A stretch of DNA of 64,000 bases from Heptranchias perlo (Eukaryota). The stretch is from positions 1,922,001-1,986,000 of the forward strand of contig NC_090365.1 of NCBI RefSeq assembly GCF_035084215.1, written 5' to 3'. A model generated the notes under the pieces. It did not search any database. It saw only the letters and a list, made by a program, of their open reading frames with translations, and was not told the origin of the DNA. Positions 36,663 through 37,619 of this stretch are shown in pieces. Positions within the stretch are counted from its first letter, which is position 1, and each line of letters opens with the position of its first letter. A program made the translations under genes and the position numbers.

Positions 36663-37038
36663 TACATTTATATAGCCCCTTATTATGACTCTCAGAGACT
36701 TCCCAAACTGCTTCACATATAATGACCTACTTTGAAGTGTAGTCACTGTTGTTATGTAGATAAACATGGCGGCCAATTTGCACACAGCAAGATTCCACCG
36801 GCAACAATGAGATAAATGACTACATAATCTATTTTTGATATTAGCCGAGGAAGAAGTTTCGGTCAGGGCACCAGGGAGAGCTCCCCTGCTCTTCTTTGAA
36901 TAGTGTCATCGGATCCATTATGTCCGCCCGAGAGCGCAGACGGGGCCTCAGTTTAACATCTCATCTGATACATGTTACCTCCAACAATGCAAGGAATCTT
37001 ACAACACCAGGTTATAGTCCAACAGTTTTATTTGAAAA

Positions 37039-37075
37039 TCACAAGCTTTCGGAGGCTTTCTCCTTCGTCAGGTGA
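37039..37075 (-). ncRNA. Minimal hammerhead ribozyme motif (mini-PLE left arm)
   Basis: Minus strand: UCAC-CUGACGA-A-GGAG-AAAGC-CUCC-GAAA-GCUU-GUGA. Confidence 0.75.
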
Positions 37076-37161
37076 GTGTGGGATTCCATGGAAGGTACCG
37101 CATATATAGTCAGAGAACAATCCAATTAGTAATATGCGGTACCTTCCATGGAATCCCTCAC

Positions 37162-37198
37162 TCACCTGACGAAGGAGAAAGCCTCCGAAAGCTTGTGA
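37162..37198 (+). ncRNA. Minimal hammerhead ribozyme motif (mini-PLE right arm)
   Basis: TCAC-CTGACGA(37166)-A-GGAG-AAAGC-CTCC-GAAA(37187)-GCTT-GTGA; all stems intact. Confidence 0.75.
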
Positions 37199-37619
37199 TT
37201 TTCAAATAAAACTGTTGGACTATAACCTGGTGTTGTAAGATTCCTTACATTGTCCACCCCAGTCCATCACCGGCATCTCCACATCATGACCTCCAACAAC
37301 GCAGCAACACCCTCCCCCCAGTACTGCCTAAATTAAGCGGCTTGAACTCGTACCTTCTGACTCAGAAGCAAAGTGCTACCAACTGAGCCAAGCTGACACG
37401 TACGTGTACAATGTGTGGCCTCAGTCCTACATTGAATTGTGGCATTTAGATGGTTTTTATAAGTGGGAGTGAGTTATAGGTCGAAATCTAGCAGAGGGGT
37501 TTGGATAGCATGAAACTTCAAAGAAACTTGAGTGGTGTTTAACATCACGTGGATCATCAGATTAGATAAATTGACTATAGCTGACCTCCCGGGGCATTGC
37601 ACATGGGGAGTCAAGATCA

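Follow-up and report, generated by a model that had tools for sequence, protein, structure and literature searches.

The 301-bp palindromic insert at positions 36988-37288 of the window (the whole 64-kb stretch of DNA analysed) is, to judge from its sequence, the pseudo-LTR (pLTR) end of an endonuclease-bearing (EN+) Penelope-like element (PLE). We consider it likely that it arose as a one-off, extremely 5'-truncated insertion of such an element, probably of Neptune type, that was dead on arrival, by way of a staggered cut, double priming, an early stop, a jump to the flank and joining. Its centre is patched with DNA from 600 bp away, which indicates that it was built on the spot and is no copy of a self-spreading mini-element. 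The original prediction of a palindromic element of about 300 bp with a hammerhead motif on each strand fits this anatomy, with one motif in each arm. The insert and its target are laid out as follows.

36701-37328 (+): host SINE-like repeat split by the insert, ends approximate
36977-36987 (+): left target-site duplication (TSD), 11 bp, of which the last 4 nt can also pair with the arm end (outer microhomology)
36988-37105 (-): left arm, an inverted pLTR stub of 118 bp without tail
37132-37249 (+): right arm, a direct pLTR stub of 118 bp
37250-37288 (+): PLE tail, AC-rich and ending in ATG; 35 nt unpaired from 37254
37289-37299 (+): right TSD, 11 bp

The insert is flanked on both sides by the same 11-bp TSD (ACCTCCAACAA at 36977-36987 and 37289-37299), a duplication with a chance probability of about 5e-6 when 25 registers are allowed. 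The arms pair at 116 of 118 positions, with mismatches at 36990 and 37079, and pairing extends another 4 bp into the left TSD (122 nt altogether); the 115-bp arms with one mismatch that had been described earlier correspond to the inner stretch 36991-37105 and fall short of the full arms. Two differences in 118 sites place the arm divergence within a 95% interval of 0.2-6%. The spacer between the arms measures 26 nt (37106-37131), exactly as predicted, and the predicted one-sided tail is present, with an unpaired length of 35 nt (37254-37288; 39 nt if counted from the arm end) in place of the 36 nt first given. With the insert removed, the host repeat, presumably related to a SINE of cartilaginous fishes, is continuous over the emptied site: among 25 BLAST pieces, all of them the window's own copies of this repeat, 4 cross the site by at least 15 nt and 1 by at least 25 nt. 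This supports the earlier view that an 11-bp target duplication interrupts a host SINE.

The affinity of the insert is best seen by comparison with a second, larger PLE insertion in the window, which belongs to another subfamily.

29823-31551 (unstranded): 1.7-kb sibling PLE insertion, other subfamily, same layout and same tail
30660-31190: sibling frame encoding a Cys linker and a GIY-YIG-like endonuclease, open for 176 codons

The sibling is likewise palindromic, with arms about 830 bp in length that agree at 804 of 833 columns, the direct arm being the longer, a 33-nt spacer, a 12-bp TSD and an outer microhomology of 2 nt, compared with 4 nt in the insert. From ribozyme to tail the two elements agree at 127 of 136 columns (93%), whereas upstream of the ribozyme only 24 of 48 columns are identical, with 20 gaps; this poor alignment places them in different subfamilies, as had been proposed. 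Their tails match, in line with the identity originally claimed, except for one T in the run that precedes the tail. The sibling translation carries a C-X4-C-X2-C linker followed by an endonuclease-like domain (176 residues), and in the Atlas the frame scores 0.95-0.96 to GIY-YIG clusters in which the family is found on 18-44% of members; Pfam returned no GIY-YIG match for it. A Cys linker of the form CX2-5CxxC between RT and endonuclease marks Neptune and Nematis PLEs (PMC8557442; cited papers are used throughout for the parts of them covered here). The parent clade is therefore probably Neptune-type on sequence grounds, a probable rather than a demonstrated assignment since RT sequence is absent from both the 301-bp insert and the 1.7-kb sibling, and since the linker is a feature of the sibling subfamily only and is shared between Neptune and Nematis. 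The autonomous parent of the insert's own subfamily was not found in our analysis, and the endonuclease evidence is that of the sibling subfamily. A 22-nt pLTR pattern had no match in either metagenome or viral contigs (0 loci each). An older, third PLE end fragment lies at 55878-55949; it is about 82% identical, is cut within the ribozyme, and has neither tail nor inverted arm.

This comparison also bears on whether the insert could be a MITE, that is, a non-autonomous DNA transposon with long terminal inverted repeats. It is short and non-coding and has inverted arms and a target duplication, all of which such a transposon would share. Its inverted repeat, however, is not terminal, as the 35-nt tail lies outside it, and its arms share 93% identity with the terminal part of a PLE that codes for an endonuclease, and they carry the hammerhead of that element. 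PLE homology and the one-sided tail rule the MITE out, leaving it a probability close to nil, and agree with the original interpretation as a PLE retro-insertion. Indeed, EN+ PLE insertions are known to consist of an inverted, 5'-truncated copy placed head-to-head with a direct copy, with a tail of 30-40 bp on one side only and a TSD of about 8-12 bp (Arkhipova 2013, PMC3846280; Craig 2021, PMC8557442). The insert shares the inverted truncated copy, the one-sided tail and the TSD with them, but only about 120-135 bp remains of either copy, without an ORF, and its centre, in place of the simple palindrome centre of EN+ PLEs, holds a flank-templated patch.

The centre carries most of the evidence for an origin at the locus. 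It is a composite of two parts, one of which matches a donor in the right flank, a feature that the original prediction had overlooked.

37106-37121 (-): spacer part 1, 16 nt, parental pLTR sequence that carries on from the left arm without a pairing partner
37122-37131 (+): filler, 10 nt, of which 9 nt are templated from the right flank and 1 is an extra base
37897-37913 (-): filler donor inside a dispersed flank repeat, the exact 17-nt reverse complement of 37114-37130

The listed contigs of the subfamily cover the left arm and reach into the spacer as far as 37118-37121; beyond 37121, 4 contigs carry different letters. That the contigs reach this far means that 16 of the 26 spacer bases are parental and that the left arm was copied further than the right. 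Of the 17 matching nucleotides, the first 8 (37114-37121) form a microhomology common to parent and donor, and the next 9 are the filler. The donor, some 600 bp away on the right, is the sole other match to 37114-37130 in the 64 kb even when 3 mismatches are allowed; none of 5000 shuffled spacers reached 17 nt within 1 kb or 5 kb, and the expected number of occurrences of the 9-nt filler by itself is about 0.04 per 2 kb. Such a unique match argues that the centre was made at the insert's own locus by microhomology-guided template jumping, and a spacer assembled with letters of the local flank did not come down from a master element. Since the donor sits in a high-copy repeat, which we take to resemble a CR1 LINE end, it is possible that another copy served as template; of the window's other copies of this repeat, the two that align over the site show 2 differences in 14 positions and 6 in 17, and in the closer copy both fall within the microhomology. 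The 33-nt spacer of the sibling has no notable flank match (8 nt). The filler ties the junction to its own locus, not to the moment of insertion. On sequence evidence, the flank-templated centre would be the point added to what is known of PLE palindromes; among literature titles and abstracts, with most subscription papers and supplements outside the scope, none dealt with flank-templated PLE centres.

Two known systems suggest how such a structure could be assembled. The Poseidon PLE of Anolis, PAc, has two internal RT start sites bounding an AC-rich tail, with a hammerhead just upstream of the tail, and in vitro both strands are cut and extended, with a minimal RNA that runs beyond the RT start sites (Frangieh 2024, PMC11167929). 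The AC-rich tail and the hammerhead just upstream of it recur in the insert. PAc, however, belongs to the Penelope/Poseidon clade and its ORF starts inside the ribozyme, whereas the sibling has a Cys linker of Neptune/Nematis type and, unlike PAc, a tail that ends in ATG. During L1 twin priming, cDNA synthesis starts from both target ends and the TSD is retained; microhomology is found at the secondary priming site, and end-joined inversion junctions as well as templated genomic insertions have been seen (PMC11702581). In L1 the two copies derive from adjacent, almost non-overlapping parts of one RNA, whereas the cDNAs of the insert copy the same region, hence the palindrome, which would need two templates or two passes.

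On this basis we propose the following course. The GIY-YIG endonuclease of the parent would have cut the host SINE with the 11-nt stagger that the TSD records. Both target 3' ends may then have primed reverse transcription on pLTR RNA at two sites bounding the tail, the right end at the far end of the tail and the left at its near end, aided by the 4-nt microhomology; the geometry is visible in the insert, and the priming is suggested by PMC11167929 and by L1 twin priming. Both cDNAs would have stopped early, at points that can be read from the sequence: the right at 37132 and the left 16 nt further, at 37121. The left cDNA end would next have paired over 8 nt with flank DNA at a distance of 600 bp, been extended there by 9 nt and then been joined to the right cDNA end, a step for which the match is evident and whose timing at insertion is our proposal. 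The product is probably a stump without the RNA downstream of the tail that PLE protein needs, if a requirement established in a different PLE clade applies here. The sibling supports this origin in that it has the same anatomy, an endonuclease coding sequence and its own, different centre. As a separate observation, the parental sequence just upstream of the stump contains an 8-bp hairpin, noticed by eye, which may relate to the stop of the left cDNA.

The same junction could instead be a repair scar. A longer or more perfect PLE palindrome would then have inserted first, and its centre would later have broken, through a hairpin or cruciform, and been repaired with a deletion and a flank-templated patch. 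The 17-nt flank match suits repair as well as insertion, long palindromes can gain central asymmetry after a break, and the 830-bp arms of the sibling show that longer palindromes occur. However, many other short centres with fillers of 1-11 nt are found among the listed contigs, which suggests that short stumps arise directly, and arms that differ at only 2 of 118 sites (0.2-6%) leave limited time for such a history, though they are still compatible with it. We regard later repair as unlikely, though by no means negligible.

A further route, in which self-priming by fold-back on an antisense template produces the head-to-head palindrome ahead of integration, has been proposed for rotifer PLE head-to-head inverted repeats with junction palindromes (Arkhipova 2013, PMC3846280), and the head-to-head arrangement of the insert is what it would give. 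It predicts a self-complementary junction of element sequence only, whereas the junction here is asymmetric and contains flank-derived letters; fold-back would survive only in combination with later repair, and we hold it to be very improbable.

The insert is an ordinary relic of a known retroelement class, for which opposite-strand motif pairs, inverted truncated copies and tails are already published, and its value is that of a mechanistic footprint. The origin of inverted pLTRs in PLEs is unsettled between the fold-back hypothesis (PMC3846280) and the two RT start sites with two-strand extension seen in vitro (PMC11167929). A centre patched from 600 bp away indicates that two halves were joined, or rejoined, at the locus, and fits twin priming with end joining better than a pre-formed hairpin. 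A single junction is an anecdote; thousands of stumps per assembly would allow testing by counts of junction types. For annotation the case is a warning, as such PLE palindromes resemble MITEs or ribozyme elements.

Each arm carries a complete hammerhead motif, as the original prediction had stated.

37162-37198 (+): right-arm minimal type I hammerhead motif
37039-37075 (-): left-arm minimal type I hammerhead motif, read from 37075 to 37039

The right-arm motif comprises stem I (37162-65/37195-98), the core CUGACGA (37166-72) with an extra A at 37173, stem II (37174-77/37183-86), GAAA (37187-90) and a palindromic helix III; the cut is predicted after 37194, and the motif thus agrees with the earlier placement of the predicted cut after CUU. 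The sequence features of the minimal hammerheads of PLEs are present: the CUGANGA and GAAA boxes, the extra nucleotide after A9, G10.1-C11.1, the palindromic helix III, the NUH site and a short helix I. Stem II pairing is preserved between the two subfamilies (A-U versus G-U), and contigs from another organism have indels at 37177-37182, which is loop II and its edge. With stem pairing required, a descriptor search made 3 matches in the 64 kb, every one in PLE arms, compared with one match each in 2 of 60 shuffles; the 1.7-kb copy carries a fourth motif in its right arm, in which one base of stem I is altered and which was found by pattern only. Rfam at E<=1 gave no hammerhead match and 4 unrelated weak matches only.

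Pairs of minimal hammerheads on opposite strands, 100-700 bp apart, have been linked to truncated PLEs (Cervera and De la Pena 2014, PMC4209133), and the opposite-strand pair of the insert is of the kind described there for metazoan PLE pLTRs. Its helix II has 4 bp, unlike the 7-8 bp of the Schistosoma motif, and the parts of PMC4209133 covered here do not dissect palindrome centres. In vitro, PLE minimal hammerheads showed no cleavage as monomers and low cleavage as dimers (PMC4209133), and the Anolis PLE hammerhead needs protein and is dispensable for insertion in vitro (PMC11167929).

In silico, the isolated ribozyme as a single strand folds no better than shuffles (z -0.8), which is expected where the motif needs a dimer, and two ribozyme copies are predicted to co-fold via the palindromic helix III. 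Read-through RNA of either strand is predicted to form a long hairpin (-221 and -234 kcal/mol), as had been anticipated. Within the full hairpin the modelled pairing probability of the hammerhead stems is 0, and forcing them would cost about 68 kcal/mol; the antisense arm is made first in both transcription directions. In these models the ribozymes are masked in any read-through hairpin RNA. We rejected a cis-acting double ribozyme: the two motifs are on different strands, dimerisation in cis is impossible for them, and the hairpin masks both. The two motifs are one parental pLTR motif copied twice, a by-product of the inverted duplication.

Other copies bear on whether the insert belongs to a palindromic family that is non-autonomous and ribozyme-only and whose members are copied as a whole, in trans, from hairpin RNA. 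Contigs from 4 of 24 listed runs were aligned to 37049-37408 at 90% likeness; two of the runs (X1 and X6) are one sample, which may be the window's own source. In 13 of the 15 listed joints (73 in all) the left arm, at 37073-37080, is joined to the right arm, at 37161-37261. The listed joints fall at differing places with differing fillers, mostly of 1-11 nt, and in sequence they look like the centres of other, shorter palindromes, though their shorter side has only 20-27 letters at 90% likeness and is flagged as unreliable. On recurrence of the same spacer at unlinked loci, the contigs, the only material compared, give a flank-derived filler here and varied centres in the other copies. None of the listed contigs bridges the junction. 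In X1 the summed contig depth drops from 32,432 at 37109-37120 to 2,141 at 37121-37132 and 94 at 37133-37144, but coverage is close to zero (0-3) in the single-copy flank at 37301-37336 too, and 569 records could be placed at either of two positions; we therefore do not count this hole in coverage as evidence.

One of these centres, joining 37073 to 37164 with an 8-nt filler, stands out by a contig depth of about 700-810 (about 700, or 811 when variants are included), compared with 5-7 in the long listed contigs. Possible readings are a recurrent element of about 219 bp, a duplication or an artefact; the depth could stem from a real family, from segmental duplication, from library fold-back or from palindromes that formed independently, time and again, at a preferred stop.

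This high-depth centre is one point in favour of a ribozyme-only family. Others are that non-autonomous PLE derivatives exist (PMC8557442; retrozymes) and that pLTRs can mobilise enclosed DNA in trans (PMC3846280). Against membership of the 301-bp copy, its spacer consists of 16 nt of parental sequence and a patch matching its own flank, the centres differ among the listed copies, the hairpin is modelled to mask the ribozyme, and the known non-autonomous forms are head-to-tail tandems, not palindromes. The family with a recurrent spacer put forward in the original prediction is thus largely refuted for this copy, and we consider it quite improbable; differing centres, compared in contigs only, are the first of two observations that the prediction had itself named as speaking against such a family. 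Literature titles and abstracts, with most subscription papers, Repbase/Dfam and supplements outside the scope, contained no self-propagating palindromic PLE family. Non-LTR retrozymes, present in the one cartilaginous fish sampled, are non-coding, carry a type I hammerhead and derive from PLE pLTRs (Li, Clavereau, Pollet 2026, bioRxiv 10.64898/2026.07.22.740005), features that the insert shares. They are head-to-tail tandems with at least 2 same-strand hammerheads, however, whereas the insert is head-to-head with one motif per strand; a non-LTR retrozyme was rejected because the motifs lie on opposite strands and there is no tandem unit.

The one-off insertion that we favour for the 301-bp copy leaves room for a different account of the shorter centres, which involves promoter-like motifs.

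37101-37108 (-): weak TATA-like motif, followed 29 nt downstream by an initiator-like motif (A at 37079); complete in the left arm alone

In both subfamilies TATA-like and initiator-like motifs 29-32 nt apart lie just upstream of the hammerhead (at 31385-31421 in the sibling). Most listed centres fall within a few bases of the initiator-like motif, a clustering partly forced by the query. An outward transcript from these motifs on the left arm would carry one unmasked putative hammerhead, and short transcripts from the predicted start site fold mostly otherwise (stem II probability 0.03 and 0.14). A class of about 210-225 bp, with arms ending near the TATA/initiator-predicted start upstream of the hammerhead, may represent double cDNAs made by run-off ('strong-stop'-like) at the capped 5' end of the parent; the centre with a depth of about 700-810 may then mark a true self-propagating palindromic ribozyme-only PLE family, to which the 301-bp copy would be a longer relative and not a member. 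We offer this account with considerable doubt. The run-off idea is a lead only, because the motifs are short and were scored without a control, the clustering is partly query-forced and the one PLE promoter mapped in the literature consulted is TATA-less (PMC2377424).

Lastly, about 2.5 kb beyond the right end of the insert there is a nanos-type zinc-finger frame (39736-40245, +; Pfam zf-nanos, E 2e-24), and we found no evidence of any effect of the insert on this frame. Other frames in the window encode an F-box protein (16332-18275, -), a BTB-zinc-finger protein (47734-49824, +) and the RNA polymerase I subunit RPA34.5 (53914-54669, -), and the region is gene-dense and vertebrate-type with 51% GC.
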